Virus record (IMG/VR): IMGVR_UViG_3300033112_000364
Coordinates: 1-63,966 of that record
Length of the DNA stretch: 63,966 nucleotides
Origin: a virus
Strand: one strand, 5' to 3'
The position numbers were made by a program, and so were the translations under genes. How positions within the stretch are numbered: the first letter of the stretch is position 1; each line of letters starts with the position of its first letter. Shown here piece by piece: positions 1 through 61,594 of this stretch. The notes below the pieces were generated by a model. The model ran no database searches, was not told where the DNA came from, and worked only from the letters and a program-made list of their open reading frames with translations.

Positions 1-55
1 TGTATTTGCTTCTGAACTTGTATCAGGAGTGTCGTATCTACCTTCAAGTTGTTCT
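1..55. repeat. Terminal overlap: bases 1-55 are identical to 63912-63966, a circular-closure signature (unique length 63,911 bp)
   Basis: Base-by-base comparison of both window ends. The reading frame of the flanking minus-strand ORF is preserved across the join. Confidence 0.95.
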
Positions 56-3000
56 TCTAATATGCTTGTAGTAACCCCATCACCAACGCCTCGATCTTCC
101 AGTTCTTGAATAAGATTAGAAATTCCACCCCATATAATTTCAAGTCCACCTAAATCAAGAACAAATGGATTTAGTTCCAATTCTCCTTCTTCAACCCTAA
201 CCAACGCCAATGACAATTCTTCTTCTATTTCTCGGAGTGTATCCAAATCCCAATCACCAGGCATATTAGGTAATTCTAAACTTGAATCTAAACCCGAATT
301 TTCAAGTGCATTTTGTGCGTCTCTAATTTGCCCAACTTCATTTTCTGTGAGATTACTCCAAAATGGTTCTCTATCTCGGATTATTTGCATTATGCGAGAA
401 TTCAATCTATCGCGAGTTTCGGGACCGGCATTAACGCTCTGATACATTCTATCCATTAAGTCCCAAAAGTTTTCTATTCTGCTTATGTGGAAATCATCAG
501 GGGTTAAATCCGCATATTCACGCAGATGACGCGTCAAATCAGTGCCAAGATGATCAGCTATAATTTCCAGTTCTGCTAAAACTGAATCACCTCGCTCTGC
601 TGGTTCGGTTTGTGTAGGTGAGGACAAGCTCTCATCGTTGAGAGATTCAACGTTGAGAGCTTCAACAACAACTTCTACTATTCTGTCAGCTCTGACCCGC
701 ATATTAGCATTTGTGGAAAGACTACGAAAAAGATCAATAACCCCACCCCAAGTAAATGTCCCATCTTCACCAAACCTCTCAATCAGATTGGAACGGTGAG
801 CTTCTGCTGCTATCAGCTCAGGCAACCAATAATCGACATAAGCCGTAGCGTTTTCTCTCGTCACATTTCCAACTACCAACTCGCCAGCATAGTTTCTTTG
901 TTGTTGTGTAAGTTCGCTTTCTGCTATGGTAGGGGGTGAGCCTTCCATTTCCTCAAGGGTTCTATCAATCGCATTAGATGCATTGTATAAGTTTTCATCG
1001 TCGAGATATTCACTTGCTTGTTCCCACGTTTCAATTGTATGGATCGTATTACTATTTTCTGCGTAATCTTCTCCAACACGATCTATTATGTACGCTTGAG
1101 GATTACTCCATGCCATTCCCCCTACATTCAGAGAACCTGTTGTGCCTTCGATATCAGGTGTAGGGACACCTTCTGCTTCGAATCTTGTTATCATAGGTTC
1201 TATATTTTCTCTGATAGTTTCAAGTTGATCCATGTAGTGAATATGTTGAAGACTCTCTCTACCACCGACAAAACGGTTGATTACATGAGTGCGATCTCGT
1301 TCAGGAACATTTGTGGTTTCAAAAAATGCAGCTAATTGCTCTCCAATATCTTGGAAGTGAACAAGTGGTAGCAACTCCAATTGGAACTCTGTGCGAAGAT
1401 AATTGCGTATGATATTTTCATAACGAGCTTCTGGCGTTTCTAATGAGATATGATGATCAATAACCTCACCAATTCTGCGGAGTGCGTTAAGATTTACGTC
1501 TTGGTTTCGCATCCTACTTACTTCTAAATCAGCAAGCCACCCTACCGCTTCAAGTGCATGCATAATATTAGACTGATCAGTTTCTGTGATGTGTCCCCAG
1601 AGGCTGTCAGGAGGGCTGGGTTCTGAATCTCTATAATATGGACGCTCTATGTAATCTACTATATCAATATCGGTCAAATCAGAATAGCTACTTTGGTCAA
1701 TATATGATTCACGCAAAAGGTCTATTACATTATCATAAAGACCATCCACATCGTAGTCATAACCGAATTGTTCGCCATAGTTGGTGAATAATTCCTGAAC
1801 CCTGTCTCCAATTGTGTTAACCATGTCTTCAAGTTCATCCTGAACTTCTTGACGTTGTTCTATGGCATGCTCTATATCCAATTCGCCATGATCTATGATG
1901 TATTGGTGAGAGTCGCGTTCAGATTCCAATTCTTCTAATTCTTCTCGAAGTTCTTCAATTGCAGCTTGAGTGTCATCGTATTCTGCCTGAAGTGCCTCTG
2001 CGGTATCACTATCGGGATCAAGGTCTGATAATTGTTCTTCTCTGCTATTTTGTAATGATTCCGAGTCTTCAATTCTGTCCTCTAATTCTTGTATTTCTTC
2101 TTCAAGAGGTTGTATGACATTTTCATATTCATGTTGTGCTTCACTGTCATAAATAACTTCATCGTCTCCGAATTGATCAATCCTGTCTTGGATTTCATCT
2201 AAATCTGATTCCCATGAATGCATGCGATCAAGAACTGCTTGGAAAGTAGTAGATTCATCTACTTCAGAAGTTCTATTGATACCGTCCGCGTCTACGTTGG
2301 GATCTGCGTCTGGAGTAGATGAACGCTCTGATGAGCGTTCTGTGATTTCTGCTTCATCTAACGCGTCCATGACAATTTCATTCAGTTCCACAACAAGCCT
2401 GAGGAATTCAGTTGGCAAATTCTGATAGTCAATAAGACTATCAACTCTATTCATGACTGTTTCCATGAATGGATTTTCACTCTCCATTTCAACATTAGTA
2501 GGGGGTCTACCAACTATATATTGAAATCGGTCACGTGCATAATCGTAGACATACTCGTTGAGATGCATTCTTGTATTATGTTCTTCTTCTTGTGCTTGAA
2601 TGCCTTCAATCCCACTGCTTTCATCCCCACTTTCAACCATTTCAATCCAACTCTCATAAACATCTATGAGGTTTTGTGCAGCTCTGCCTTGCACGGTTGT
2701 TCTAACAACTTCTGGTGTAGTTTGTCCTGGTGTGGTTGTTTGCGTAGCGGGTTGTGTAACGGGGCGTGTGGCTGGTTGTGTAAATTCAGGTGTTATACTA
2801 TCTGGTAATTGCCGTTGCAACACATCTAACAATTCTACTAAATTGTCATACAATTCAATTGCTTCATCATATCTCGTAGAACTGATTTCTGAAGTAGCTA
2901 AATCGCTTGACGCAAGTTCACGAGTTGCATGATCAGCTTCTTCATTGAAATACTCTATAAATCTATTTACAAGTTGATCTATAAAATTTATATTCCAAAG

Positions 3001-5775
3001 TGATGTATCTGTCCAACTTGGATCACCAAACGCATTCGCATTCAAGAATTGAACAGCTTCGTTGATTGTAGATAAATGCACATCAGAAAGCCCCTCATCG
3101 AGTTGACTTTCTCTATTAAATCCTTCAGGAGCTGAGCGAGGCGTGTCTGGTTCTTGATTCCATTCGTTCATTAAATTTTCAAATATAGTTTGTCGGGCTT
3201 CTATGGCATCAAAATTATTATTAGCCATATCTGCTTCTGCCAACTCAGTCTCTCTCTGATTCACTAAATCAATAAGTTCTTGCATTGACATTAAAACAGG
3301 TCTACCTCTACGGTGATCTGTAAAACGCTCGGTATCAGTATTAAATCTGCTACCGCTCATTCGCTCAAACCTATTAGACAAATCGTAAGTGTCAATGACA
3401 CTATTGAGTGTTCTTCTTGTTACGCCATGCGCGCCAGTTAGATGCAGTTCTGTATCAGCAGTAACAAAAAATGGATTATCAGGATGTGTTTGTTGAATAG
3501 GAACTCGGATTTCTCCTTCTCTGCGAAGTCTTTCTTGATCACCTTGAACGATCCTACGCACTTCGTTCATACTGCGGCTCGGGCGATATGTGCTTCCACC
3601 TTCACTTGCTGCGCCTCTTTCCCTTCCTCCCCTACTCTCTGCTATAATAAACTCATGCAGAAAATTTTCATGAGTAATGTAACGGTTCATCAAACCGAAC
3701 AAATGTTGTAGTCCTTCAGGAAAGCGTATGAAACCAGATGGAAGTCCGTGCCTCGATGGAGTTGTAGGAAATGGGGGACTGTCATCATCAGGATCATCAC
3801 TTATTGCTTTATTCAACTCTGTGGTGACAATTTGAAACATGTTGAGATGCCATTTCGAGATTGCATCCTTTATATTATTTATCTCTCTATTATCAGAGAT
3901 GTTTGTGATGTATTCTGGATACGGTATATTGATTTCACCTGAATTGATACCTCTAATAACTCTGTCTAATTCTTCAAGTAATCGGGTTTGTGCTTGGTCT
4001 CTGTTTCGCTCCATCGTTTGACGTGTAATTTCTTCACCCATTTGACGTGTAATTTCTTCACCCTCTCCTAACTGATCTCCATCTTCGGGGTCACCACCGT
4101 GAGACATCGGTGGTTCTTCCCATTCTGGTGCGGGGGGCGGCAATTCAGGATTTAGAGATCGTGTCAGATTTGAAATAAATTGCCCGTAGGATACACCTTC
4201 ATCAATCTGAACATCAGCTATATCGCGAGGAATATCAGCAATATCAGGGAAGCCTGGATCAGTATATGGATTTTCAGGTTCTGTTCTACGCATCGGATTC
4301 GCCCGTGGTGACGTTTCTGGTGGGTCTGATATATTGAATAGGGATTGAGCCTCAGGTGTTAGGTGAGGTCTCAAAACCTCGCTATCCTGACCACGCACAG
4401 TTGATTCAACCTTCTGACCGAACTCACTTTGGTCAAATGTGCCTGGTCTTTGCCACCTGTTATCCACATATTTTCTTTCATACCAGTCTCTGAAACCTTC
4501 ATAAGCCCGTCCCCCGATTTCAAATGGAAGTTGTTCGGGGTTCACATAGTCCGCAAACTTACCCATCGCACTCAAACCTTTTTGAAGTCTACCGAGTGTT
4601 TGTGGAGATGTTCCTTCACCTCGAAGTCCCTGTTTAATCCGAGTTCGGGCAATACCACTTGCCCCTGTCTGTCCGAGCATGCCAGCTGCATCGAGAGCAT
4701 GCACATAAACATCAAACGGGCGTTCTTCTAAAGTTTGTGCAAAAGTTTCGGGATCAAGCCACGCTGATGAAAATGATTCATAGTAGTATTGTAGAAGTGG
4801 TAGTAATGTGGGGGTGTTTTCTCTTGCCCATGCCAGGCGTGTGTTGAGTTGGTTGATCAATACCTGTTCATGTTCCAGTGAGTTTTCGCCATATTTTGCA
4901 ACCACCTTACCTACTTCCTGATCTTCTCGTTCCGCCATATCGCCAGTTCTGCGTAGACGCGTTCCAGTTGGAATACTCAACTGACCGAAAGGCGTACCAA
5001 CACTTCTAATATCGCCTACTTCTACACCGATGCCAAATTGTTCTTGAAATAATGCGATTTCTTTTAGAAGTGTTGGGGATTGCAATGCGAGAACTGGCAA
5101 TCCGATGACGGCATCTCCAAGCCCGGCTACAAAACTATCTGCTAATGCTCGTGGATCAGTGATTCCACGCCCGAAAGCGGCACCAAGACTAACAGATTTT
5201 CGCATACCATATTCGTCAAAAAGTTTATCGTAGGCTTCTTGTGTTTGTCCTCTTTTTCGTTTATATCCAGCCAACAGCTTTGCTTCTTCAGATTGATCGC
5301 GTAGATTTTCTCTGCGGAGCCTCATCGCATTTTCCCAATACTTCTGTCTGCTCTTGAGAGCATAATTTTGTGGACGCATGGGCGCGCCTTGCCACGGGAC
5401 ATCATGAGATCGTTCTTCTAAAGGCAGTTTGAGTTGGGCATCTATATGATCAAGGTAGGATTGATATTGTTTTGTTTTATCATCGCTATGTTCGCGATTC
5501 ACTTGTTCTGTTAATTGTGCTATTGTGTGATCGTAATATTCAAGAAAATCCAACAAGTCTTGACGTTGATTACCTCTTGACTTCAAACGCTCTTGGATAA
5601 GTTCCTGTAACCACAGATCATAATCCATGATCCGTTCTTCAGATTTGTCTGTATCGTATTGATCAAAGCGAACAGGGGCATCAGATTGCATCTTGCGTGC
5701 TGATCTACCAGATGCAATACTTGATGACCCACGTGGTTGAAATGGGTTGATTGAAGATGAGAAAGGATTTCTCAC
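1..5775 (-). CDS. Giant virion-module protein, N-terminal ~1,925 codons. The ORF runs off base 1 and continues at 63911 across the circular junction. Total is ~2,694 aa from GTG 5775, or ~2,666 aa from ATG 5691.
   Basis: I translated the minus-strand frame whose codons start at positions divisible by 3 and found no stop from 5790 down to base 1. The ORF track lists no minus ORF in 1-5700, as expected if the frame never closes inside the window. GTG 5775 overlaps the stop of ORF 5772..6218 (GTGA). The translation is acidic, looks helix-rich, and shows no catalytic motif I recognise. Confidence 0.8.
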   Translation of the reverse strand, partial: MRNPFSSSINPFQPRGSSSIASGRSARKMQSDAPVRFDQYDTDKSEERIMDYDLWLQELIQERLKSRGNQRQDLLDFLEYYDHTIAQLTEQVNREHSDDKTKQYQSYLDHIDAQLKLPLEERSHDVPWQGAPMRPQNYALKSRQKYWENAMRLRRENLRDQSEEAKLLAGYKRKRGQTQEAYDKLFDEYGMRKSVSLGAAFGRGITDPRALADSFVAGLGDAVIGLPVLALQSPTLLKEIALFQEQFGIGVEVGDIRSVGTPFGQLSIPTGTRLRRTGDMAEREDQEVGKVVAKYGENSLEHEQVLINQLNTRLAWARENTPTLLPLLQYYYESFSSAWLDPETFAQTLEERPFDVYVHALDAAGMLGQTGASGIARTRIKQGLRGEGTSPQTLGRLQKGLSAMGKFADYVNPEQLPFEIGGRAYEGFRDWYERKYVDNRWQRPGTFDQSEFGQKVESTVRGQDSEVLRPHLTPEAQSLFNISDPPETSPRANPMRRTEPENPYTDPGFPDIADIPRDIADVQIDEGVSYGQFISNLTRSLNPELPPPAPEWEEPPMSHGGDPEDGDQLGEGEEITRQMGEEITRQTMERNRDQAQTRLLEELDRVIRGINSGEINIPYPEYITNISDNREINNIKDAISKWHLNMFQIVTTELNKAISDDPDDDSPPFPTTPSRHGLPSGFIRFPEGLQHLFGLMNRYITHENFLHEFIIAESRGGRERGAASEGGSTYRPSRSMNEVRRIVQGDQERLRREGEIRVPIQQTHPDNPFFVTADTELHLTGAHGVTRRTLNSVIDTYDLSNRFERMSGSRFNTDTERFTDHRRGRPVLMSMQELIDLVNQRETELAEADMANNNFDAIEARQTIFENLMNEWNQEPDTPRSAPEGFNRESQLDEGLSDVHLSTINEAVQFLNANAFGDPSWTDTSLWNINFIDQLVNRFIEYFNEEADHATRELASSDLATSEISSTRYDEAIELYDNLVELLDVLQRQLPDSITPEFTQPATRPVTQPATQTTTPGQTTPEVVRTTVQGRAAQNLIDVYESWIEMVESGDESSGIEGIQAQEEEHNTRMHLNEYVYDYARDRFQYIVGRPPTNVEMESENPFMETVMNRVDSLIDYQNLPTEFLRLVVELNEIVMDALDEAEITERSSERSSTPDADPNVDADGINRTSEVDESTTFQAVLDRMHSWESDLDEIQDRIDQFGDDEVIYDSEAQHEYENVIQPLEEEIQELEDRIEDSESLQNSREEQLSDLDPDSDTAEALQAEYDDTQAAIEELREELEELESERDSHQYIIDHGELDIEHAIEQRQEVQDELEDMVNTIGDRVQELFTNYGEQFGYDYDVDGLYDNVIDLLRESYIDQSSYSDLTDIDIVDYIERPYYRDSEPSPPDSLWGHITETDQSNIMHALEAVGWLADLEVSRMRNQDVNLNALRRIGEVIDHHISLETPEARYENIIRNYLRTEFQLELLPLVHFQDIGEQLAAFFETTNVPERDRTHVINRFVGGRESLQHIHYMDQLETIRENIEPMITRFEAEGVPTPDIEGTTGSLNVGGMAWSNPQAYIIDRVGEDYAENSNTIHTIETWEQASEYLDDENLYNASNAIDRTLEEMEGSPPTIAESELTQQQRNYAGELVVGNVTRENATAYVDYWLPELIAAEAHRSNLIERFGEDGTFTWGGVIDLFRSLSTNANMRVRADRIVEVVVEALNVESLNDESLSSPTQTEPAERGDSVLAELEIIADHLGTDLTRHLREYADLTPDDFHISRIENFWDLMDRMYQSVNAGPETRDRLNSRIMQIIRDREPFWSNLTENEVGQIRDAQNALENSGLDSSLELPNMPGDWDLDTLREIEEELSLALVRVEEGELELNPFVLDLGGLEIIWGGISNLIQELEDRGVGDGVTTSILEEQLEGRYDTPDTSSEANT
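4017..4063 (-). repeat. In-frame 24-bp tandem duplication inside the giant gene (peptide GEEITRQM/GEEITRQT)
   Basis: tttgacgtgtaatttcttcaccc occurs twice with a 24-bp period (4017-4039 and 4041-4063). Confidence 0.9.
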
Positions 5776-6218
5776 GCTTGTGTTTTGCCCTCAACCCCTC
5801 TATTCTCTCTGTCTTTTTTCCTATCTTCAAGCCACCGCAAACCTGTTTCGAAATGCGTTCTCGCAACAGTGGTATATCGTGAAGGAAAGTTACCAGATTC
5901 AAAGCCACGCATTCTATGCACAAGAATTCTCGCGAGGTCTTCATCTGTCATGCCGTTGACAGGGTTTTCTTTACGCGGTCCCTCTTGCATGTCTACTTGA
6001 CCATGAACAACAAAGCTCGTTTCAACTTCAACTTCGGCTTCTTCATTAGCCTCTACTTGCTCTTTTGTCCTGCGTTTCTTTTTTTCTTTAGATTCTACCT
6101 TTCTAACTATATAGTGGTGACAGGCACCAGAAACGGCATCTGGTGGGTCTGTTGCTACAAGCTGAGTGTATTCATCTTCATGTAAAATTTCTTCATGATT
6201 AGTTTCTTGATCTTGCAT
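5772..6218 (-). CDS. hypothetical protein (148 aa)
   Basis: TAGGAG lies upstream of ATG 6218 and the stop overlaps the GTG of the giant ORF. It has an acidic N-terminus, a KEKKKRRTKE linker and a helical-looking C-terminus. No motif recognised. Confidence 0.7.
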   Translation of the reverse strand: MQDQETNHEEILHEDEYTQLVATDPPDAVSGACHHYIVRKVESKEKKKRRTKEQVEANEEAEVEVETSFVVHGQVDMQEGPRKENPVNGMTDEDLARILVHRMRGFESGNFPSRYTTVARTHFETGLRWLEDRKKDRENRGVEGKTQA

Positions 6219-6289
6219 TTTGTTCTCCTAATATGATAGCACATATCCGATAACGCATAATGCTATTAAAATCAAAAGTCCTATTTCTA

Positions 6290-8767
6290 TCATCGTAAAG
6301 GTTCAACTCTCCGAAATGGATTATCAACTCCAAATGGATTATTGGAATCAAAAATCGGTTTTGGTTTGTTTTGTTCACGCCTACCACGTTCTGTTGAGCG
6401 AGATGTTCGCATTGCTGCGCGAACTCCTACTTTCGGTCTAAATTTATTTTCTTTCATAAATGGAATTACCATGTATTCATTAGCTATCTTAAAATCTTCA
6501 GGAGTGACGGTTACCACCGTGCCATCCCTTTTTACAACATCCCAGCTATGCCCTTCTAACATCCATTTTCTACTTGCATCCGATTTAAGATAGTTATTCC
6601 ACCAACGCTCTCCAACAAATGCTGTTGTCATACCTGCGATTAGTGCAGCGTCTGTAAGCGAAAAAGTCCCCATGCCGACTTTGATACCACCATATCCACC
6701 GCCCATGAATGGAAGCATTGTGCTGATGTGATTCAGTAGTGATAGAAAACTCGGACTATGGACTAATCTATTTACAAATCCAGTAGGTGAGCCTTTTGTC
6801 CACCTACCTTCTTCAGAGAATTTTAATGCAAATTCACCAAGTGATGCAAGTTCTTTCGCCAATTCATCACCAAACAGATGTCGTAACCGATTTTTGTTAA
6901 CTTTATTGAGAGCTGCAATTTCAGATTTCAAACCACCCCAGCGAAAATGTTTTGTGCTACCATTCGCTTTATCGAGAAAACTCATAAGTAGACCTGGTTT
7001 GACCAAATCCCAACCGTTTTTACCCAAGATCACTTTCATATCTTGAATAAAAAACTTTGAAGTATTTTTGTTCAAGAGTTTATTTACAATGTTGTGAGGT
7101 GTGTCTAAATTTCTTCGGATGAATTTGCCAGCGGGTTTATCTTCCAAAATCAATGTTTCTGCATACTCTTTTTTCGCATCTTTGATTGTTTGTGTAAAAT
7201 CTGCTGGGAAATCTGATGGGTTCAGTGCATGTTCTGTTTCTACTAAATCGTAAAAATCCTCTGTTAATGTCTGATAAAGTCGCGACACAGGATCACCACT
7301 TCCGATCGGTTTTAGCCCAGCCTGATGAATTGCTTCCTCAAACTTTTGTCTGAACTCTGTACGAAACTGGTCAAAGTCTCTAATTGTCAATCCATCATTG
7401 GACAATCTGGCAAATGCTTCGCTCAACACTTGCTCTGCTATTTGAATAGATTGACGCGGACCTGAAGAAAGACGAGAGTGGTCATTTTTCAATTTATCCA
7501 ACTCGGCACGTGTTTTAGAAAGCAAAGGAAAAGTGTCAGGATCAATACGTAATTCAACATCTAATGTTTGTGCTATGTCCCCAAACATTTTTCTGAAGCT
7601 CGCATTTTTCCCAGTTTGCCAATTTTGGTATCGCTGTCTGATCGCCCCCCCAACCTCATCAATATCAAAAGTGTTGTTGACGGCAGAATCAAGACCACGT
7701 GCAATATCAATTTCACGATTTGTTATATCATCAAGTGTTTCAGAATATGCTTTTTCAGACCTCTCAAATCTTTGTTGAACAGGTATTGAATCTTCACCAC
7801 CCGTTTGGTGTCGTATCATCTCATTATGTTTTACTGTGGGATTTTCTGATAAAACAATAGCGGGCGTTTGATCTGCTACTGTACCGATTTTATCTGCCAT
7901 CTCTACTGGCGTTTGTGTGGTTTTTAATTTATCGCCAGTCTGCGTATCTCTACCATACACAGCGTTAAAAGGTTTGTTATAGTCTTCTTTAGCGAGATTG
8001 CGATTTTTCCACTTTGCCACTGCTTTTCCAAGCAGACCGCCAGCAACGAAAGGTGCTTCAACTGGATCAGTGTATGGCAAGATCATACCCGCTCTACGAG
8101 TTGCTCTTGCTGCTTTTCCAGTTCCTTTGATTTTCTGAAGGTGTTTGGTATAAGGTAGAACGGTAGAAAGAACACGAAAAGGACGCTCATATAAGGTATT
8201 GAGCAGTTTATCACTGTCTCCCCAAACTGAATATGATTCCCAAAGTATGTTGCCCAGCGTTGGTGCTTCTTCTGCTAATTTCTTGTATGCCTCATCACGC
8301 TGTTTGTAAATGTTTTTGAGAGTAGGATCATCCTTTCTATTTTGCCCAAGAAAACCAGTGCGAGTTCTGTAATGACTTTCAAGCTCCAAGACTTTTGTTA
8401 GAGCTTTGAAAATACCGCCCGGATTGTAGTTTATTTCAGTTATCATTTCTTCTGCAGCATGACCGAGATTGGCTTTTCTAATATCATCTAATTCTTCCCA
8501 AAAAGAGTTCCAAGCGTTTATTGTCCACCTTCCAAATGTTTTCTTTTCAGGGGTTCTTTGGGCATCAGGTATAGCACGGGATACCTTCTCATCTAAAAGT
8601 TGTTGAGTTGCATCGTCAATAGATGTATCTGTTTGTTCAGGTAAGGTGGGAACTTCTGAATCAGGGCGTGCAGCGGGCGTAGGTTGATTTTCGTTTGGCA
8701 CTGGAAGCGTTGGAACACCTTCAATATCTTTTAATAACTCATCAGTAAGATTGTCTATATCGTTCAT
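6290..8767 (-). CDS. large virion-module protein (825 aa), possible internal/ejection protein
   Basis: 4-nt overlap with the upstream ORF. Gly-rich hydrophobic stretches lie near the C-terminus (MLPFMGGGYGGIKVGMGTF, AALIAGMTTAFVG). The C-terminus carries tandem NPF (NNPFGVDNPFRRVEPLR). Confidence 0.5.
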   Translation of the reverse strand: MNDIDNLTDELLKDIEGVPTLPVPNENQPTPAARPDSEVPTLPEQTDTSIDDATQQLLDEKVSRAIPDAQRTPEKKTFGRWTINAWNSFWEELDDIRKANLGHAAEEMITEINYNPGGIFKALTKVLELESHYRTRTGFLGQNRKDDPTLKNIYKQRDEAYKKLAEEAPTLGNILWESYSVWGDSDKLLNTLYERPFRVLSTVLPYTKHLQKIKGTGKAARATRRAGMILPYTDPVEAPFVAGGLLGKAVAKWKNRNLAKEDYNKPFNAVYGRDTQTGDKLKTTQTPVEMADKIGTVADQTPAIVLSENPTVKHNEMIRHQTGGEDSIPVQQRFERSEKAYSETLDDITNREIDIARGLDSAVNNTFDIDEVGGAIRQRYQNWQTGKNASFRKMFGDIAQTLDVELRIDPDTFPLLSKTRAELDKLKNDHSRLSSGPRQSIQIAEQVLSEAFARLSNDGLTIRDFDQFRTEFRQKFEEAIHQAGLKPIGSGDPVSRLYQTLTEDFYDLVETEHALNPSDFPADFTQTIKDAKKEYAETLILEDKPAGKFIRRNLDTPHNIVNKLLNKNTSKFFIQDMKVILGKNGWDLVKPGLLMSFLDKANGSTKHFRWGGLKSEIAALNKVNKNRLRHLFGDELAKELASLGEFALKFSEEGRWTKGSPTGFVNRLVHSPSFLSLLNHISTMLPFMGGGYGGIKVGMGTFSLTDAALIAGMTTAFVGERWWNNYLKSDASRKWMLEGHSWDVVKRDGTVVTVTPEDFKIANEYMVIPFMKENKFRPKVGVRAAMRTSRSTERGRREQNKPKPIFDSNNPFGVDNPFRRVEPLR

Positions 8768-10398
8768 CTGATTAGAGTCCTTTTTCTCCGCAGACTGTCT
8801 ATAAACTCTTGAGCCGTTGTGCCGGGTCTCCGCTCTTTCATTTCTTCAAACATTCCATCAAATTGTGCTTGCGAAATATATCTGATATATTCTTGAGGAG
8901 CAACTTCACCTAAATCAAATTTGAGATTAGTAGTGTAATTTCCCCAATCCTCGCCCATATTCTTCACAAACGTGTCTTTGAGACCTCTCAAAACATTTGT
9001 CATCAAACCGTCTATAATAGCAGTATTCAGCTTATAGTCATTACCGATTTGAGCGAAAATTTGAGTATACATCTCACGTTCTGATTCAGTAACCTGCGCG
9101 CCTGAACGCAATGCGATAAATTCAGTAACAAGGAATTTGATGTCTGAAAACAAAGAGGCGACTTCAGGATCATTAGGTATTATGTCACCCCCAGTTCTCC
9201 TTGCAATTGCCTCAACAAATGCTGTCAGCTTACCCAAATCTTTACCTTGAGATTGTAAAAGATCAATTCTTTTTTGAATTTCAGGAAGATGCACTTGAAG
9301 TATTTCACGAGCGAGCAGATTTCTTTTAGCGATTTCTCCACCAGGTGCATTTTCAAAAATCTCATCTGCTGCTAAAAAAGCAACTGCTTTTTTGTTCTGC
9401 GGATCAGATGCCATCTGTTCAAAAGTTCTACCTCTTAAAAAACTATCAATATCGTGGGCCCACGCTTTTCTGTTACCAACCGGCATCATACTACCGATTT
9501 TACGAATCATGTAGTTATTAGAAAAATCATCTTTGTATTTATTGAAGATTTCCTCTGCTCTCTGCGTGTCTGTTATGCTACCTGGCGAAGGTTCTTTTTG
9601 TAAGATGCGAGGTGAGGTTTTACCGCCAGCGATTTCTGCTTTTTGCTGGTTTTTCCAAGCTTCCCATTCCTCATCTTTCATACCAGCAGGCTTTTCAAGT
9701 GCATCAATAATGTTTGTTTTTGCACCAAGCTCTTGCTCGGTTGTTTCTTCAGGTGTTTTCTGTTCTGGCTTTTCTGTGGTATCACGCATGAACGCTGCAG
9801 CAGGATCAACATTTGAATCAATTTCTTCATTCATTTGTATTGCACGTTGTTCAGGCGTTTGTGCTTTTCCAGTCGTTCTTTCTTGCTGGCGAATTTGTTT
9901 TGGTGTCATTTCCAATTCAGTAGCAAAACTACTGGATTGCACATCATCAGAAGCACCTAATAAAGCAAGTTTGGCAGTCTCAGGAGTTGACGAAGACGCA
10001 GCTTCACGAAAATCCTTTGTTTTGTTGTATAAATCAGGATCAATATCTTTTATGATAGCTGCGAGATAGTCAACAGTTGTATAGTCCTTGTCTTTGACTG
10101 CTGCCACATAAGCATTTTTGAGCCAATGCGATTGTCCCATCTCAACGAGTTGTAGTGCCTGTTCGTGTAGTTTTTCTTTTAGTTTGATTTGTTCTTCTAC
10201 ATTTTTTTTCTGTTCCTTGAGCAAATCCCCCTTCGCTGCCATTTCTGCACGTAGCAAGGCAGCCTCTTGACCAGAGACATCACCATTACCTTTCGCAAAG
10301 TGGGCGTTCATCAGTTCGGTGACGAGATCAGTTGCTGGTTTCGGAGTGGTATCTGCAGCTTGATTACCAGATTGTAATGTGCCTGCTATACTTTGCAT
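8764..10398 (-). CDS. hypothetical virion-module protein (544 aa)
   Basis: Long ORF coupled to its neighbours. The N-terminal half is Lys/Glu-rich and coiled-coil-like. No catalytic motif seen. Confidence 0.5.
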   Translation of the reverse strand: MQSIAGTLQSGNQAADTTPKPATDLVTELMNAHFAKGNGDVSGQEAALLRAEMAAKGDLLKEQKKNVEEQIKLKEKLHEQALQLVEMGQSHWLKNAYVAAVKDKDYTTVDYLAAIIKDIDPDLYNKTKDFREAASSSTPETAKLALLGASDDVQSSSFATELEMTPKQIRQQERTTGKAQTPEQRAIQMNEEIDSNVDPAAAFMRDTTEKPEQKTPEETTEQELGAKTNIIDALEKPAGMKDEEWEAWKNQQKAEIAGGKTSPRILQKEPSPGSITDTQRAEEIFNKYKDDFSNNYMIRKIGSMMPVGNRKAWAHDIDSFLRGRTFEQMASDPQNKKAVAFLAADEIFENAPGGEIAKRNLLAREILQVHLPEIQKRIDLLQSQGKDLGKLTAFVEAIARRTGGDIIPNDPEVASLFSDIKFLVTEFIALRSGAQVTESEREMYTQIFAQIGNDYKLNTAIIDGLMTNVLRGLKDTFVKNMGEDWGNYTTNLKFDLGEVAPQEYIRYISQAQFDGMFEEMKERRPGTTAQEFIDSLRRKRTLIR

Positions 10399-10405
10399 AT
10401 TTCAC

Positions 10406-11251
10406 CTATGGAAGTTGGAAAGCATCTATAAGCCATTGCGCGCCAAATGCTTGTTCTAATAATCCCATTTGCTGTGGGTTGCCCATATACATCTTACCCA
10501 AACGACTCCCCTCGTGAATCTTGTGTTGTGTGATATGTTGTTTTATTTCTTCTTTTGAACTGTTGGCAGTCAACCCAGCAGACATAGATGCATCAGTTCC
10601 TTGCGTAGTTTGCGTGGTTTCTGGTGTTACGACTTTCCCTTCTGCGTCAAATTGAACTTTGCCGAACTGGGTTGGTACGGTAGTGTTCTTGGGGGGTTGA
10701 CCTTCAGTCATCTGATCTTTGCTACCACCACTTTCGTCCTTGTCACCAATACCAAGTGCTTTCCGCAGAGGTGAATCCGTTGTAGCTACATTGAACGCAG
10801 TTGAGGTAACAGCATTTCCTAAAGATGACCAATCTTTCTGTTCTTCTGCTCTATTTGCTTGATCTGTCCAAGCTTCTGCATGAGCGATGTTGTCTTCCAG
10901 TTCTGCTTCTCTATCATCAAGCCAATCGTCTGCTCGTTGACGGACGGCTCTCTCTTGACCACTACTTACTGACTCCGAAAACTCACCACCCAAACCTTTC
11001 GCAGCCATACTCGCAGCTAAAGAATTCCGAACCTCTGCTCCACTCCGTCTCGCTCGTCTACGAGTTGTTCGGGCGGTTCGTTGGAAAGCATCTCGAAACG
11101 GATTAGGATCAAACTTGAATGGATTATCGTCTTGTAATGCTCCAACTATACCACCACCAATTGTTGCGGCTCCAATAAGAAAGGGATTAGCTGATGGTGC
11201 AGCTGCTAATCCGCCCGCAACGCCAGTTGTAAATGCTTTTCTAACTCCCAT
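10406..11251 (-). CDS. Gly/Ala-rich membrane-segment protein (281 aa), possible internal/ejection protein
   Basis: N-terminal segment GVAGGLAAAPSANPFLIGAATIGGGIVGAL is followed by DDNPFKFDPNPF and an Arg-rich patch (RTTRRRARRSG). Confidence 0.5.
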   Translation of the reverse strand: MGVRKAFTTGVAGGLAAAPSANPFLIGAATIGGGIVGALQDDNPFKFDPNPFRDAFQRTARTTRRRARRSGAEVRNSLAASMAAKGLGGEFSESVSSGQERAVRQRADDWLDDREAELEDNIAHAEAWTDQANRAEEQKDWSSLGNAVTSTAFNVATTDSPLRKALGIGDKDESGGSKDQMTEGQPPKNTTVPTQFGKVQFDAEGKVVTPETTQTTQGTDASMSAGLTANSSKEEIKQHITQHKIHEGSRLGKMYMGNPQQMGLLEQAFGAQWLIDAFQLP

Positions 11252-11501
11252 CAGATTCTCCTATATCTAACTTGTTTGTTACCAATGTGTCGTTTTCTTT
11301 AAAACATGAATTACACCGAAAAATAAAGCTCGGTTGCTTTTCTGGTGTAATATATTCTGAAAATGGTAGTCTAATCTTTATACCTTCAAGATCGGTAAAC
11401 ATACATTTGCAGTCTTCACAATGAAACACTTTCCTGTATTCTTGAAGCATTATGTTAAGTTGTTCTTCTGAATAAACCCTTTTTCTTTTTACTCTTGTCA
11501 T
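11241..11501 (-). CDS. small zinc-ribbon-like protein (86 aa)
   Basis: Cys pairs CEDCKC ... CNSC. Confidence 0.55.
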   Translation of the reverse strand: MTRVKRKRVYSEEQLNIMLQEYRKVFHCEDCKCMFTDLEGIKIRLPFSEYITPEKQPSFIFRCNSCFKENDTLVTNKLDIGESDGS

Positions 11502-11787
11502 AGTCTTTTATTTTACCATGCCGTTTCGCATGGCACTCCCCACATAGTGAAATTAAATCTTCCATGTTTTCACGGAAGATACGGTCATAGGTTAGGTGAT
11601 GCACTTGCTTTGCTGGCTTTCCACAATCTTGACAAACTCCCTTATCACGCTTTAGAACCGCCCTACGTATCTCATGCCACTTGCCAGAACGAATGTAAGA
11701 AGCATAGATAGCTGGATTATAGGGAACTCTCGGAGTTCTCGGTAATCTCCGTTTGTTTGTCTTGAGCCAAGGGCGAAGTTTGCTCAT
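11455..11787 (-). CDS. HNH endonuclease
   Basis: CQDCG..VHHLTYDR..LISLCGECHAKRH matches the HNH / Cys-box signature. Confidence 0.85.
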   Translation of the reverse strand: MSKLRPWLKTNKRRLPRTPRVPYNPAIYASYIRSGKWHEIRRAVLKRDKGVCQDCGKPAKQVHHLTYDRIFRENMEDLISLCGECHAKRHGKIKDYDKSKKKKGLFRRTT

Positions 11788-12023
11788 TTTTTCGCACTGC
11801 GGTTTCGCATGATGTAAGGTAATGGTCTACGGTTAGAAGGTGTTCGTTTCTTCTTCTTTTCGTCAGAAAGACGTTGCAAGGGGCGGTTGTAAGTTTCCAC
11901 CTTGACACCTTTCTTCTTATCCTTTAGCGAAACGAATTTACCTGTCTTTTCATCTCTACCGATTGAAAAAGGGTTGCCGTTATTTTTAGGATTCATTTTC
12001 ATCATAGTTCTCCAATGCGTCAT
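11784..12023 (-). CDS. small very basic protein (79 aa)
   Basis: K/R-rich ORF coupled to the HNH gene. It competes with the overlapping ORF 11717..11908. Confidence 0.45.
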   Translation of the reverse strand: MTHWRTMMKMNPKNNGNPFSIGRDEKTGKFVSLKDKKKGVKVETYNRPLQRLSDEKKKKRTPSNRRPLPYIMRNRSAKK

Positions 12024-13258: not shown

Positions 13259-13681
13259 TTACCCAGAGTCTATCACTTCATCATGAAGTTCTATTTTAGA
13301 TAGATCATTAGCAACGTGTATGCCTAAAATAATTTTTTCAAAATTCATGGTGATAGCAATGTCAGCATCTCGGAATAATACTTTGATTTCTCCAAATTCT
13401 TTCAATTGACATTTATACCAAGTTCGTTTCATATTAAGCATTCTTGAGTCTAATCCATCATTCGTAATACTGAAAATACCATTTATATTTAGATTGGTGT
13501 AAATGTGGAATTTCTCAATGTGGGATTCCTCCCAATCTTCCCAATCTTCTCTATTTTCACAATTATCAGAGTCTCTTTGTGGAATCAATTCATGGCATTC
13601 CTCAAGTGTTTTGAAGTCATGCCGTTGCACTTCTTCTATACTCATAATAATTGATTCAGTAAAATTTTCAATAATTTTCAT
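13259..13681 (-). CDS. hypothetical protein (140 aa)
   Basis: ORF in the array with an acidic W/E-rich stretch. Confidence 0.6.
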   Translation of the reverse strand: MKIIENFTESIIMSIEEVQRHDFKTLEECHELIPQRDSDNCENREDWEDWEESHIEKFHIYTNLNINGIFSITNDGLDSRMLNMKRTWYKCQLKEFGEIKVLFRDADIAITMNFEKIILGIHVANDLSKIELHDEVIDSG

Positions 13682-39405: not shown

Positions 39406-39801
39406 TTAATAGTGATTGACCTCTAATCTAAAGTATTTGCCAATCGGATTATACCAGATACCTGTTACCGTCTGTTTTCGCTCTTTTGTTTCACCGTTAT
39501 CTTCTTGCACAGCAACACCCATAGGATACACTGAATCTTCGTTACACTTCTTGATCAGTTTGTCTATGGTCTCTGTGGTAGGTGATAAGTCAAACTCACT
39601 ACCTTTCACAACCACTCCATTCTCTTTCACATAAGAGTTGAAGGGGTTGTGATTACGCATCACGATGTCGTATGTGCCGTCGGGAGCGGTGCTGCGGACA
39701 TCTAACTCCATGTCCTCTCTATCGGTGTCAGGTGGATAGTCGTAGAGCATGATCCCCCAGTCAACAGGTAAATCCATGTCTTCATATTCTTTTATCGTCA
39801 T
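39406..39801 (-). CDS. hypothetical protein (131 aa)
   Basis: ORF following the terL stem-loops. Confidence 0.6.
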   Translation of the reverse strand: MTIKEYEDMDLPVDWGIMLYDYPPDTDREDMELDVRSTAPDGTYDIVMRNHNPFNSYVKENGVVVKGSEFDLSPTTETIDKLIKKCNEDSVYPMGVAVQEDNGETKERKQTVTGIWYNPIGKYFRLEVNHY

Positions 39802-44434: not shown

Positions 44435-44445
44435 CGTATATCTCC

Positions 44446-51427: not shown

Positions 51428-51685
51428 TTAGAGTTTGATCTTGGTAATATCTTGGTCAAAATAAGCAATCGGTATTTGATAGTATTCAGACAAGATCAAG
51501 AGTGATTCATAGCTGGGAAACCTTTTAGCATTTTCCCATCTCGACAAAGCACTTTCACTCAACCCTGTCTTTTTTGAAATTTCAACATTGGTGACATTTT
51601 TCTGTTTTCTCAAAAATATCAGGTTTGTCGCCATCATCTTTTTACGCGTTCTTGTTACTCTCATTCGTTTGGAACTTTTAGACAT
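51428..51685 (-). CDS. XRE/Cro-type helix-turn-helix regulator
   Basis: VTNVEISKKTGLSESALSRWENAKRFPSYESLLILSEYY. Confidence 0.75.
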   Translation of the reverse strand: MSKSSKRMRVTRTRKKMMATNLIFLRKQKNVTNVEISKKTGLSESALSRWENAKRFPSYESLLILSEYYQIPIAYFDQDITKIKL

Positions 51686-59635: not shown

Positions 59636-61594
59636 CTAACCCACAGGCGTCGGTAGGGCATTCCCTTCCGACGCTTGTTGGTTTTGAGACATTCCTTCTG
59701 TCATCTGTTGTAGCATTCCAAGACCACCCCCACCAGCTTGTTGTATTTCTGCATCCATCTGTGCCATGAGTTCCCTTGCTTGTAGCATCTGTTGGACTTG
59801 TTCCGCAATCGGTATGCCCGGCACTAACGTTTTAGTCATCGCTTCCATTTGTGCCATCCACTCCTCAGGCATCTTATCGCTCATTTCCGTCAACTTCATA
59901 AATGTTGCTGGCGGGATCAATCCCATATTGTACATGATCATATAGATATTCCACTCGCCCGAAACCGTCGTTGACGGCAACATCGCTTTACTATCTATCT
60001 GAACATCAAATTTCAAGTCTGCCATAGCAAGATCAATGTTTGGATACTCATCAAGTCCTAATCGCTCTGAATAAAACTCATTAGCAAAATCTGTGTGTTT
60101 TTGCATCATCATCGTTTCAAGATTCGCAGCGTTCAAGTGTCCAACATCAAGCATGCGAGCATATTCTGCCATCAACGTGTTTGCTGTTTCTAATAAAGTT
60201 TGAGCGTGAATACCAGATTTTACCGAAGACGGAGCGATACCTGATAGGATACCTTGAGGATCACCAGAAAGCTCACGTGTATATGCTACCTCGTTCTGCA
60301 TCAAATTATGAACAGATGATCCCACATCGCCAGGCTCTATCTGTTTGATTCGGTTACGAGAAATAGCGTCATGCTCCACATACATCAAAATGTTAGACTT
60401 CATAGAGAAGTTCTTACCTTGAACTGCTCCACGCTCTGCCATCCATTGAGTGTATGCATTAGCCCTCACATTTTTACCGATTGCGTTGTAGCAAATGTCT
60501 ATGAAATCTTGAGTTCCTATGATAGTATCTACGAGAGAATATCCACCCGCCCTATCACTCATTGGATCATGACAATGACACACGATCGGATACAACCCCA
60601 TCAAGTCGGGGCCCTTGTCTTCCTCTTTCATACCATAAGGGATTGCCCAGTCGTTCACAAGTATGAATAGACGAGCGCGCGTGTCCTTCCTCTGCGGGTT
60701 TTCTCGCATCTCCTCAACATCACCGTCAAAGTTCAAGAGGTCAGGAACGCCTGGATTCCAAAAGAATGCTTTCACTGGATATGCTGGCATCTCCCGTTTG
60801 ACTTCAACCTGATCATCTGCTGCATCGCTCGTTGTCCAATATCTGCGTATCATAGACGCATCATCGAGATAATTCTTTTCAGAATCACCCCCCATATAAT
60901 CTCTCTCTGCGAGACCATATCTTGCATAGATTTCAGCTGCAGACATCTCAGTCTGAACTCTGATATATCTTGAATCCCAAAAAGTAGAAATATCTTTGGC
61001 TGCAGGATCAAGTAAAACCTGATGACGATATGCTAATCTCGGATTGACAACCGTTCCTCGCCACATATCTTGCCTGACACTATAGACGGTAAATGCCATC
61101 CCGTCTATTAGAGACATCTCAACCTGTCTCTTTTTGAGAACTTGCTCTTTCCTCATCTGTCGTTCAAGTTTGACAGCATCATTCAATTTTGTAGCAACAA
61201 CACGATTTTCATAATCATTCTGATAGAACATATCCTCGTATGCGAACTCGCCCATCGCATCGGGACGCAGTGCTTTGATTTGTGCCTCAGGTGCTGCACG
61301 TGAAAGCAGAGCGGTGAATTGCTGCACTTTTGGTTTGATGACATCTTTATGTAGTATTGTGTTGTTTGAATACTGCTCCAGTTTGCCTCGCACATTTCTT
61401 GGAGCATTCCGCAGAAGATGAGGCATATCACCCCGAACATACGAGTGATTGCGAATAGAATTATCAATATCACTTGCAGCTTCTTCTAAAGCCATACCTT
61501 CAAGATGTAGTAGTGCTTGCCGCATATCTTCAACGGTTGTTATTTGTTCGAGTGGTTTACGAATACCATCTCCGTGCGTAACAATACTATGCAT
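59636..61594 (-). CDS. portal protein candidate (652 aa)
   Basis: The size fits, and the Gln/Met/Ala-rich C-terminal tail resembles that of T7-type portals. It starts 7 nt after the giant gene stop. No diagnostic motif was verifiable by eye. Confidence 0.55.
   Translation of the reverse strand: MHSIVTHGDGIRKPLEQITTVEDMRQALLHLEGMALEEAASDIDNSIRNHSYVRGDMPHLLRNAPRNVRGKLEQYSNNTILHKDVIKPKVQQFTALLSRAAPEAQIKALRPDAMGEFAYEDMFYQNDYENRVVATKLNDAVKLERQMRKEQVLKKRQVEMSLIDGMAFTVYSVRQDMWRGTVVNPRLAYRHQVLLDPAAKDISTFWDSRYIRVQTEMSAAEIYARYGLAERDYMGGDSEKNYLDDASMIRRYWTTSDAADDQVEVKREMPAYPVKAFFWNPGVPDLLNFDGDVEEMRENPQRKDTRARLFILVNDWAIPYGMKEEDKGPDLMGLYPIVCHCHDPMSDRAGGYSLVDTIIGTQDFIDICYNAIGKNVRANAYTQWMAERGAVQGKNFSMKSNILMYVEHDAISRNRIKQIEPGDVGSSVHNLMQNEVAYTRELSGDPQGILSGIAPSSVKSGIHAQTLLETANTLMAEYARMLDVGHLNAANLETMMMQKHTDFANEFYSERLGLDEYPNIDLAMADLKFDVQIDSKAMLPSTTVSGEWNIYMIMYNMGLIPPATFMKLTEMSDKMPEEWMAQMEAMTKTLVPGIPIAEQVQQMLQARELMAQMDAEIQQAGGGGLGMLQQMTEGMSQNQQASEGNALPTPVG

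Follow-up and report, generated by a model that had tools for sequence, protein, structure and literature searches.

The tripeptide Asn-Pro-Phe (NPF) is a short linear motif shared by the proteins encoded just before the portal gene of an uncultured podovirus-like phage known only from metagenomes, a finding well supported because the motif passed both the enrichment and the conservation checks. The motif resembles an address label common to these proteins, for which no phage counterpart has been described. We tentatively propose, at somewhat less than an even chance, that the conserved NPF is a multivalent docking motif, which would load ejection proteins via a common procapsid receptor. The DNA analysed is the whole stretch of 63,966 nucleotides of the IMG/VR record IMGVR_UViG_3300033112_000364 (hereafter the window). 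The window ends share a 55-bp direct repeat, which indicates a circular genome of 63,911 bp. The block genes and motifs located below all lie on the minus strand, and positions are those of the window.

Enrichment of NPF near protein ends

Across 89 ORFs (20,824 aa), NPF occurs 15 times against 2.0 expected (Poisson 4.3e-9). It is the most over-represented tripeptide of all (runner-up, Poisson 2e-5), and the highest count reached in 1,000 composition-matched per-protein shuffles was 7. Thirteen of the 15 copies are confined to a single operon block, of which the portal gene is the last, and are distributed over four proteins, namely a 79-aa basic protein, a 281-aa protein, an 825-aa protein and a giant protein of 2,694 aa. 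Eleven copies stand within 60 residues of a protein end, as compared to 0.9 in the shuffles, and 8 of the 13 block copies stand within 25 residues (binomial 5e-8). An earlier note on this DNA had held that the terminal pairs of neighbouring proteins do not look random, single triplets occurring elsewhere by chance, as in TerL. Both statements are borne out: the two stray copies, one in a 131-aa ORF (39406-39801) and one at residue 419 of TerL, are as many as chance would give (about 2).

The specificity bears on all three positions of the motif. First, NP is followed by F in 13 of 25 instances in the block, versus 2 of 54 in the remaining proteome. Second, 13 of the 25 xPF triplets of the block begin with N. 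Third, 13 of its 27 NxF triplets have P in the middle. NPF is followed by any of several residues (R, L, V, K, S or A), with polar or basic rather than acidic flanks. The corresponding DNA pattern was found 15 times in frame, versus one or two times in the other coding-strand frames, and the codons vary; selection acts on the peptide, not on the DNA.

NPF-carrying proteins encoded upstream of the portal gene

The 281-, 544- and 825-aa genes immediately precede the end of the portal operon; their order mirrors that of the P22 genes 7-20-16, and this cassette is syntenic in six relatives (L001-L004, L006 and L009). Judging from sequence and gene order, the carriers are distant relatives or positional counterparts of P22 gp7, gp20 and gp16; they are most probably packed in the head and ejected into the host. 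That the carriers are of the P22 ejection type fits a role of NPF in virion incorporation or docking. The operon's last gene encodes the portal protein (652 aa; 59636..61594; phrog_156 at 5.3e-16), and the syntenic portal genes of relatives match the Pfam P22_portal family. The portal is only a candidate NPF receptor. No coat protein could be confidently assigned among the proteins scanned, and no prohead protease was found among about 40 phage proteins scanned, which are part of the ORF set.

The 825-aa protein (6290..8767) is a gp16-like ejection ("DNA transfer") protein, as suggested by phrog_770 and hhalign comparisons. Its own match to phrog_770 reaches an E-value of 0.002 only; 10 of its 31 clear homologues match phrog_770 (best E-value 3.2e-11), and its family aligns with P22 gp16 over 185 columns (hhalign probability 50.5%, E-value 1.6e-4). 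The kinship is distant and transitive, with a similarity found at the level of family profiles. The protein terminates with NNPFGVDNPFRRVEPLR, which presents the tandem NPFGVDNPF (6314..6340) 7-15 residues from the C-terminus, and its homologues in L001, L002, L003, L004 and L006 possess one or two NPFs 2-13 residues from theirs. The C-terminal tail is predicted to be disordered (AF2 models residues 801-825 as coil, at a pLDDT under 50). In the wider gp16-like family the last residue is E or Q in 38 of 55 members; the C-terminal tip is constrained and, therefore, the end matters in all lineages.

The 281-aa protein (10406..11251) is the positional counterpart of P22 gp7, as suggested by gene order and a Gly-rich hydrophobic segment; a direct sequence match to gp7 was sought and none was found. 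Its three N-terminal NPFs (residues 22, 43 and 50; 11096..11188) flank the Gly-rich segment. The SANPF copy is retained in L001-L003 and reads NPY in L004 and L009, FDPNPFR is invariant across L001-L004, and DDNPF occurs in the window and L001 only. The 544-aa protein (8764..10398), the positional counterpart of gp20, has no NPF in the window. In its homologues a single (Q/E/D)ENPF lies inside the protein, near residues 200-227, and the aligned stretch reads EEIDSNVDPAAAF here, indicating that the motif was lost. Consequently, a cargo protein need not bear the tag. The very basic 79-aa protein (ORF 11784-12023) carries an NPF at residue 17 (11967..11975), within a motif, NPFx[IV]GRDxxTG[KR]F, which is conserved in L001, L002 and L003 and absent from L004.

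Since the 55-bp terminal repeat closes the circle, the giant is a single ORF of 2,694 aa spanning the window ends, the first 1,925 codons of which occupy 1..5775, while the remainder (61602..63911) comprises 769 codons and the stop at 61602-61604. The portal gene starts 8 nt past this stop codon. The giant starts with the GTG at 5775, this start codon and the upstream stop sharing bases in GTGA; its N-terminal peptide is MRNPFSSSINPFQPRG, and it terminates with SKNPFQIQNRQVSQRANPFA. The terminal peptides quoted in the earlier note for the 825-aa, 281-aa and giant proteins were all found in place; for the giant, translation agrees with NPFs at the N-terminus from GTG 5775 and at the C-terminus (61602-61665). 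Its first NPF (residues 3-5, MRNPF; 5761..5769) is NPF in L002 and L003, and NPV in L006. The second (residues 10-12; 5740..5748) is aligned with NPV in L003 and has no equivalent in L002 and L006; it is a variable second copy. The C-terminal pair consists of an NPF at residue 2677 (61650..61658) and another at residues 2691-2693 (61608..61616), one residue before the stop (NPFA*). Two homologues, P0006 and P0007, also possess two terminal NPFs, spaced 6-12 residues, and both end with NPFV*; an NPF…NPF[A/V] C-terminus is found in three giant homologues. The giant has its N-terminal (about 440 aa) and C-terminal (about 400 aa) domains in common with homologues of 4,307 and 1,525 aa. No Pfam domain was matched in the giant, in which no binding or polymerase domain was recognised.

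The giant also harbours three internal NPFs, which, like the N-terminal NPF of the 79-aa protein and the size of the genome-wide enrichment, had escaped the earlier note. The first, at residue 767 (PIQQTHPDNPFFVTADTEL; 3469..3477), is aligned with an NPF in L002 (residue 698) and L003 (residue 1151), and has a similar context in L006 (residue 433). The one at residue 1101 (2467..2475) may be due to chance or be lineage-specific, as it is not kept in L002. The context of the third, at residue 1869 (EGELELNPFVLDLGGLE; 163..171), is shared with L002 (residue 1736, EGEIELNPFTMDSTGLQ) and L003 (residue 1649, VEGNPFVMDMTGFE), both with an NPF.

Conservation of NPF in related genomes

The terminal NPFs are kept in related genomes, a point that the earlier note had proposed to check: they stand at matching protein ends across six related metagenomic genomes of 24-65% identity, and the surrounding tails are unalignable. 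The enrichment recurs in each related locus, with NPF counts of 7 versus 0.35 expected in L001, 7 versus 0.57 in L002, 12 versus 0.89 in L003, and 8 versus 0.46 in L004. The copy number ranges from one to three, with F swapped for Y or V at some sites, a turnover typical of short linear motifs. One of the relatives comes from a sponge metagenome.

Multi-copy tags, like a C-terminal NPF on the gp16-like protein, were found only in the giant-encoding genomes (the window and L001-L006), whereas in L007, L009 and L010 no giant precedes the portal and NPF is scarce or absent. The more distant gp16-like homologues, from genomes with no giant, do not possess a C-terminal NPF, and the ejection proteins of T7, N4 and P22 have no NPF, indicating that the tag is clade-specific. 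Our literature searches agree with the earlier note that no described phage system uses such a tag. A scan of IMG/VR for NPF...NPF[A/V] followed by a stop retrieved the same tail on phage SSB or gp2.5-like proteins (L047, phrog_378; L074, phrog_112). Finally, in relatives a small SprT-like HExxH protein, a candidate peptidase, is encoded just upstream of the block; in the window genome the HExxH core of this neighbour is deleted and the NPFs are retained.

Possible roles of the NPF motif

The earlier note had proposed a short linear motif serving for procapsid incorporation, portal docking or maturation cleavage. Its general form stands, owing to enrichment and conservation; of the three functions, cleavage is the least attractive. 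In the docking mechanism that we tentatively favour, NPF would act from flexible tails at either terminus, and from a few linkers, of the gp7-like 281-aa protein, the gp16-like 825-aa protein, the giant and the small basic protein, as well as of the gp20-like protein in relatives, with two or three copies being common. The Asn-Pro turn would hold out the Phe to a single pocket that serves all of them within the procapsid during assembly; this receptor could be the scaffold, the coat (on its inner face) or the portal. A common receptor would allow all cargo proteins to be co-loaded, tandem copies would add avidity, and the tags would stay on rather than being removed. We infer the common receptor, the binding during head assembly and the presence of the carriers in virions. 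P22 offers a partial precedent, in that its scaffolding protein recruits the ejection proteins into procapsids by way of unknown signals, the portal being dispensable (PMC8402733). However, P22 gp7 and gp20 are incorporated via their N-terminal regions, not short terminal tags, which argues against the docking mechanism (PMC8402733). So does the internal position of some giant NPFs, in conserved and perhaps folded sequence.

A stronger form of the proposal, that a single tripeptide label read by one procapsid or portal pocket sorts the whole ejected proteome into the head, is rather doubtful. If true, the smallest sorted protein would be the basic one of 79 aa and the largest a giant of 300-480 kDa, and the label would be portable, in that a few residues on either protein end could suffice for loading into a podovirus capsid and delivery.

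As the gp16-like relatives from genomes with no giant also have no C-terminal NPF, the tags could serve the giant, not the capsid. In an alternative that we regard as unlikely, though it deserves attention, NPF organises the ejection machinery instead of loading the capsid: the tails of one protein would dock on folded domains of another, the giant being a conceivable hub, or else engage the portal or tail lumen, and the tags would fix the exit order or assemble a channel in the host envelope after ejection. The confinement of the gp16-like C-terminal NPF and multi-copy tags to genomes with the giant, and the scarcity or absence of NPF in L007, L009 and L010, which have no pre-portal giant, speak for it, as does the location of the sequence encoding the giant's C-terminal pair, directly upstream of the portal gene. 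Furthermore, ejection proteins unfold and thread through the tail, for which their ends are natural leaders (PMC13434306). On the other hand, few genomes were sampled, the giant has no recognised binding domain, and the 281-family protein of the giant-less L009 keeps an N-terminal NPY and FDPKNPF, indicating that the giant is not the sole reader of the motif.

It is improbable that NPF mimics a host ligand, the tips docking onto a host protein after ejection. The C-terminal tips of E. coli SSB and T7 gp2.5 are partner-docking elements, the terminal Pro-Phe tip of SSB recruiting partners, and there may be a resemblance to the disordered translocation domains of colicins, which bind TolB or OmpF. 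The NPF...NPF[A/V] tail of phage SSB or gp2.5-like proteins in IMG/VR and the probable delivery of the carriers into the host are in line with such mimicry. However, many NPFs are N-terminal or internal, the Phe carboxylate is free at no terminus, and the flanks are non-acidic.

Less probable still is a proteolytic or autocatalytic processing at Asn-Pro, which would trim the protein ends and cut the giant, with its internal NPFs, into modules. Asn-Pro bonds self-cleave in FlhB/YscU (NPTH) and reovirus mu1, a host protease removes 20 N-terminal residues from P22 gp7, and in relatives the gene that immediately precedes the block codes for the SprT-like HExxH protein. However, cuts so near the termini (three residues from the N-terminus, or a single residue from the C-terminus in NPFA* and NPFV*) would free no more than trivial peptides, a spacing of three residues between tandem sites is hard to reconcile with cleavage, and the NPFs persist here despite the deletion of the neighbour's HExxH core. 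Moreover, autocleavage needs structured loops, and the motifs stand in tails predicted to be disordered.

As to chance, composition or a DNA-level artefact, such as a nucleotide repeat near gene ends, it accounts for the 2 of 15 copies at background (TerL and the 131-aa ORF) and is otherwise effectively refuted by the shuffles (Poisson 4e-9; no shuffle above 7 copies), the enrichment in related loci, the frame-specific occurrence with varying codons and the conservation in six other genomes.

Comparison with known systems

The block NPFs do not match the Asn-Pro autocleavage motifs of the FlhB/YscU (NPTH) or mu1 type, as the residue following NPF is variable and the tails are predicted to be disordered. 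In N4, the giant multi-domain vRNAP gp50 is ejected with the smaller channel-forming proteins gp51 and gp52 (PMC13434306). Our phage similarly encodes a giant alongside smaller putative ejection proteins; however, N4 gp50-gp54 have no NPF and the present giant has no recognisable polymerase domain.

In T4, a short terminal peptide, the capsid targeting sequence (CTS), common to the internal proteins IPI-IPIII is enough for prohead loading, and these proteins are ejected later (PMC8402733). Both systems place a short terminal peptide on several small or basic proteins, which are internal in T4 and putatively so here. However, the CTS leader, some 10 residues long and always N-terminal, is removed by the prohead protease, whereas NPF is unrelated in sequence, often tandem, and found at either end as well as internally. 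With C-terminal and internal copies, and no prohead protease among the about 40 proteins scanned, NPF is not a T4-type CTS.

SSB (…DDDIPF) and T7 gp2.5 use a Pro-Phe tip on a disordered tail to dock partners, and phage SSBs in IMG/VR end with NPF…NPFA. The SSB tip needs Phe as the last residue after an acidic run, whereas NPF is followed here by at least one residue and is often N-terminal. As the giant ends with NPFA and its homologues with NPFV, the flanks are polar or basic and the carriers have no OB-fold match, NPF is not an SSB tip.

In the eukaryotic ligands of EH domains (Eps15, epsin, intersectin), NPF is usually multicopy and disordered, and the Phe of the Asn-Pro turn enters a pocket (PMC2238750). 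The NPF core is identical here, and it is likewise multicopy in a disordered context. However, the EH system is eukaryotic, cytosolic and endocytic, as opposed to the putative internal virion proteins of a bacterial virus, and no EH or EF-hand Pfam match was found in the proteins scanned, which are part of the proteome. As a remote variant, NPF could mimic eukaryotic EH-domain ligands, given the relative from a sponge metagenome.

There is also a relationship to P22 in gene organisation, even though P22 gp7, gp20 and gp16 have no NPF, P22 has no giant fourth protein, and its recruitment operates via larger N-terminal regions and the scaffolding protein. The two phages share a small-medium-large three-gene cassette in the head-gene neighbourhood, Gly-rich hydrophobic segments, and the distant homology of the 825-aa family to gp16/phrog_770.

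Lastly, the cargo-loading peptides of encapsulins are disordered-tail motifs, shared by cargoes, which fit into a pocket lining the interior of a shell of HK97 fold (PMC7355545). Encapsulins are not phages, and their peptides are Gly/Ser/Leu-rich as opposed to NPF; in both systems a short motif, borne here by a predicted disordered tail (825-aa protein), is common to several proteins, in the present case four to five.

NPF enrichment ahead of the portal

The Asn-Pro-Phe tripeptide (NPF) occurs 15 times in the window versus 2.0 expected (89 ORFs, 20,824 aa), and it ranks first in over-representation among all tripeptides (Poisson 4.3e-9; 2e-5 for the runner-up). The earlier note, which regarded the paired terminal NPFs of this region as non-random, had asked for a comparison with composition-matched shuffles, and the NPF count of 1,000 per-protein shuffles never exceeded 7, as compared with 15 in the window. 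Thirteen of the 15 copies are spread over four proteins of the block preceding the portal, namely a very basic 79-aa protein, a 281-aa protein, an 825-aa protein and a 2,694-aa giant, and the remaining two, one in TerL and one in a 131-aa ORF, correspond to the chance expectation. The block copies are strongly biased towards protein ends, eight of the 13 falling in the 25-residue zones at the termini, which comprise 5% of the residues (binomial 5e-8). Each of the three positions of NPF is specific; F follows NP in 13 of the 25 dipeptides of the block versus 2 of 54 in the rest of the proteome. All the peptides quoted in the earlier note are present and the sites it listed are correct, but its count was too low, the giant having seven NPFs (residues 3, 10, 767, 1101, 1869, 2677 and 2691) and the 79-aa protein one (residue 17).

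At the nucleotide level, 15 copies of AAYCCNTTY stand in the coding frame; the two remaining frames of the coding strand hold 1 and 2, and the complementary strand holds 8. The 15 in-frame copies use mixed codons (AAT or AAC, all four CCN, TTT or TTC). A DNA-level motif was rejected as the source of NPF on this frame specificity and these mixed codons; selection acts on the NPF peptide.

Genome organization and nature of the NPF carriers

The first and last 55 bases of the window are an exact direct repeat (1-55 and 63912-63966), so the assembly closes into a circle of 63,911 bp; the repeat is the overlap left when a circular or circularly permuted genome is assembled. An ENA contig of 64,004 bp is the same genome opened elsewhere within the giant gene. 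Searching 50,697 cultured phage records with the 825-aa protein and the portal (tblastn) revealed no cultured phage resembling it.

The minus strand carries nearly all genes, and the NPF region is the terminal part of one long operon, which comprises on that strand, in order of transcription, the genes of the 79-aa protein (12023-11784), an HNH protein (11787-11455), an 86-aa remnant ORF (11241-11501), the 281-aa protein (11251-10406), a 544-aa protein (10398-8764), the 825-aa protein (8767-6290), a 148-aa protein (6218-5772) and the giant. The start codon of the latter, GTG 5775, overlaps the stop codon before it (GTGA), and the gene crosses the junction to stop at 61602. The portal gene (61594-59636, minus strand) lies 8 nt beyond; its product matches phrog_156 (5.3e-16) and its syntenic counterparts in relatives match Pfam P22_portal. 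The genes of TerL (41814-39901) and an SU10-adaptor-like protein (43321-41780), both on the minus strand, lie outside the NPF block. A candidate scaffold gene is located at 45670-46590, and two ORFs, 44446-45573 and 43625-44503, are candidates for the coat. Elsewhere, the genome carries three DNA methyltransferase genes (13678-14523, 48498-49364 and 51678-52382, minus strand; one of the three is Dam/MethyltransfD12-like in relatives), a PAPS-reductase-like gene (57943-58842, plus strand) within a short plus-strand block, and a gene (15836-16588, minus strand) for a 250-aa protein with a hydrophobic N-terminal leader and a collagen-like Gly-X-Y run (GPTGADGTDGKDGRDGTDGKDGRDGTDGNMGPPGLPGRDG).

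The 825-aa protein weakly matches phrog_770, "DNA transfer protein" (E 0.002), which is also matched by 10 of its 31 clear homologues (best 3.2e-11), and hhalign matches its family profile to P22 gp16 across 185 columns (probability 50.5%, E 1.6e-4). The gene order 281-544-825 parallels P22 genes 7-20-16, and the 281-aa and 825-aa proteins contain Gly-rich hydrophobic segments resembling those of P22 gp7. From this distant homology and synteny, we treat the block as the probable ejection-protein set of a podovirus-like phage, supplemented by the giant and the small basic protein. In the AF2 model of the 825-aa protein (mean pLDDT 66.8), residues about 260-650 form a confident helical core, and the tail 801-825, which bears both NPFs, is coil (pLDDT <50). 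This model has no structural neighbour in the PDB (Foldseek; nothing below E 0.3), the gp16-like family profile retrieved nothing from PDB sequences, and Pfam gave no credible domain for the giant, 544-aa and 281-aa proteins. The giant has a conserved N-domain (residues 1-440) and C-domain (residues 2265-2672).

Several features of these genes deserve mention in their own right. The 1,525-aa giant homologue P0007 (10001-14578 of the related locus L004) has sigma-70 region 4 and HTH Pfam matches near its C-terminus, directly before its NPF pair, which hints that the giant family may bring a function in transcription or DNA binding to the host. A second short repeat of the giant, WEEPP(M/G)S(H/Y)GGDPxDGDQLG, is present in two copies (residues ~552 and ~2260; nt about 4060-4120 and 62850-62910, minus strand), and the 4,307-aa homologue P0006 has five copies of DPDIPGSYGGDPxxGDQ(A/L)GE (residues 966, 2463, 3171, 3683 and 4092), a repeat also found in the relative L006. 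The repeat may delimit modules or serve as a further docking or processing motif. The 148-aa ORF, located inside the ejection-protein operon and devoid of NPF, is Tad1-like (phrog_2428, 5.9e-24; weak precomputed Pfam match to Acb2_Tad1_hairpin), and over its C-terminal half it shares 40-47% identity with proteins of Bacillus phages, two of them bearing the annotation Tad1 (anti-Thoeris sponge). It has homologues in L001-L003, and L004 and L006 have an HTH-fused version instead.

Conservation of NPF in related genomes

Six related metagenomic genomes or fragments were recovered with word-indexed protein searches, one exhaustive profile search and contig look-ups. Their identity to the window is about 65% (L001), about 38-50% (L002), 28-42% (L003, L004 and L005; L004 coming from a sponge metagenome) and about 25% (L006). 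NPF is enriched in L001 (7 observed versus 0.35 expected), L002 (7 versus 0.57), L003 (12 versus 0.89) and L004 (8 versus 0.46), and among the 34 genes of L003 and the 22 of L004 it is limited to the same block, except for one non-conserved copy in the L003 portal.

Conservation of the terminal NPFs, which the earlier note wished to see verified, was found at the 825-aa tails and the giant ends. The tails of the 825-aa family have NPF alone in common: …NNPFGVDNPFRRVEPLR in the window, …DNPFGTTNPFRIQQPVE in L001, …GDSNPFRQ in L002, …LNNPFGGRVVE in L003, …GGNPFLRIEQ in L004 and …NRNPFMREVQ in L006. Three giants end with an NPF pair, the second copy being one residue from the end (window, …KNPFQIQNRQVSQRANPFA; P0006, …NNPFEQRQSRNPFV; P0007, …GNPFLSGRPQLQYSPSNPFV). 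At the N-terminus of the giant, three lineages have M-x-(R/K)-NPF and one other has NPV; of its internal sites, 767 and 1869 are kept in context and 1101 is not. As for the 281-aa family, FDPNPFR is invariant across L001-L004, SANPF is replaced by NPY in L004 and in the more distant L009, and DDNPF is limited to the window and L001. The small basic protein has NPFx(I/V)GRDxxTG(K/R)F in four of five genomes, and the 544-aa family has one internal ENPF in all four relatives examined, which is lost in the window. A tiny core strictly kept, a variable copy number, occasional conservative replacements and unalignable flanks jointly make up the evolutionary signature of a short linear motif.

This motif appears to be restricted to one clade. 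In a set of 64 remoter members representing the gp16-like family, NPF lies near the C-terminus of the four closest alone, and three more distant lineages (L007, L009 and L010) have no giant ahead of the portal and little or no NPF. The L009 protein of the 281-aa family retains NPY at the N-terminal site, with FDPKNPF further along. The internal or ejection proteins of T7 (gp13-16), N4 (gp50-54) and P22 (gp7, gp20 and gp16) have no NPF. Across the wider gp16-like family, the C-terminal residue is E or Q in 38 of 55 full-length members, 20 of the 55 ending with V-E or V-Q, and the end is often preceded, a few positions upstream, by an aromatic residue (…GGYKPIPVE, …DNFFVE, …ERFLVE). P22 gp20 (10069-11484 of L008) likewise ends with …KFTVE. 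Ends of this kind may act as a C-terminal tip signal common to the ejection proteins of podoviruses. Since this tip is constrained across the wider family, NPF looks like a clade-specific elaboration of an end important in all lineages.

No further relatives emerged from IMG/VR scans with the portal and a gp16-like sub-alignment, or from two JGI metagenome scans with the 281-aa and 825-aa family alignments. A DNA-pattern scan of IMG/VR for NPF…NPF[A/V]-stop gave 74 matches versus a rough chance estimate of about 60, and the believable ORFs among them were SSB or gp2.5-like, ejection proteins being absent; the ejection-protein NPF tag was therefore not found beyond this clade. Three such SSB/gp2.5-like genes of unrelated phages (L047, 7413-7913, minus strand; L074, 826-1542, minus strand; L072, 999-1931, plus strand; phrog_378, phrog_112 and phrog_2367, respectively) encode disordered C-terminal tails with two or three NPFs, ending with NPFA. 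Such tails resemble an NPF-based variant of the C-terminal docking tip of SSB.

Possible functions of NPF

NPF is thus established as a peptide-level, end-biased, multicopy and conserved motif on predicted disordered tails of co-encoded ejection-protein-like proteins. The statistical and comparative case for it is solid, and its function is what we infer. A single common reader would be the simplest mechanism accounting for NPF on different proteins. As all the carriers would need packaging, we tentatively favour the reading that NPF serves as a tag recruiting each of them into the procapsid. The selection and loading of ejection proteins by podoviruses are poorly understood, even in P22, where recruitment requires the scaffolding protein, the portal is dispensable and the signal is undefined (PMC8402733).

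A possible, less probable role is the organization of the ejection machinery, or a giant acting as a hub, since multicopy tags and the giant occur together; L009, which lacks the giant, nevertheless has tag-like motifs. Docking onto a host protein after ejection would be in keeping with the NPF…NPFA tails of phage SSB/gp2.5-like proteins, the tips of which are partner-docking elements, but we find it improbable, as the motifs of the window do not form Phe tips at the C-terminus and are in many cases N-terminal. Even more doubtful is a proteolytic or autocatalytic processing site, which is unattractive where the motif lies one to three residues from an end, and where it is in tandem. In relatives, a SprT-like HExxH protein of about 150 aa (HEL[IVL]HLHF) is encoded directly upstream of the 281-aa family (L001, 6931-7404; L002, 6925-7350; L003, 3667-4125; L004, 3717-4196). 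In the window, the 86-aa ORF is its remnant, made of the first ~24 residues and the C-terminal zinc ribbon; the metallopeptidase core is deleted and the NPFs are still there, so this neighbour was rejected as an obligatory processing enzyme. Chance and a DNA signal are excluded by the shuffles, the enrichment in L001-L004, and the frame and codon counts.

Significance and comparison with known systems

No account of phage NPF tags emerged from our literature searches, in which the NPF matches were eukaryotic EH-domain papers only. We rate NPF as a candidate type of terminal docking or targeting peptide for capsid cargo, carried by a phage clade that is uncultured and has not been described before. 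A very short conserved motif, present in several copies at the ends of all ejection proteins of a clade, would offer a concrete, mutable handle on loading, would suggest a single receptor for cargoes of 9 to 480 kDa and, if portable, could serve as an engineering tag to package foreign proteins in phage heads. It would also bring a bacterial-virus case to the short-linear-motif concept, the examples of which have so far been mostly eukaryotic or from eukaryotic viruses.

In form, NPF has the same sequence as the EH-domain ligand of eukaryotes and is similar to the Pro-Phe tail tips of SSB, but it appears to belong to neither. Common terminal tags are carried by several cargoes in the case of both the T4 internal proteins (PMC8402733) and the encapsulins (PMC7355545). 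In proposed function, the closest systems are the T4 capsid-targeting sequence and the encapsulin cargo-loading peptides, to neither of which NPF appears to belong, and its occurrence on the small, highly basic 79-aa protein is reminiscent of the T4 internal proteins.
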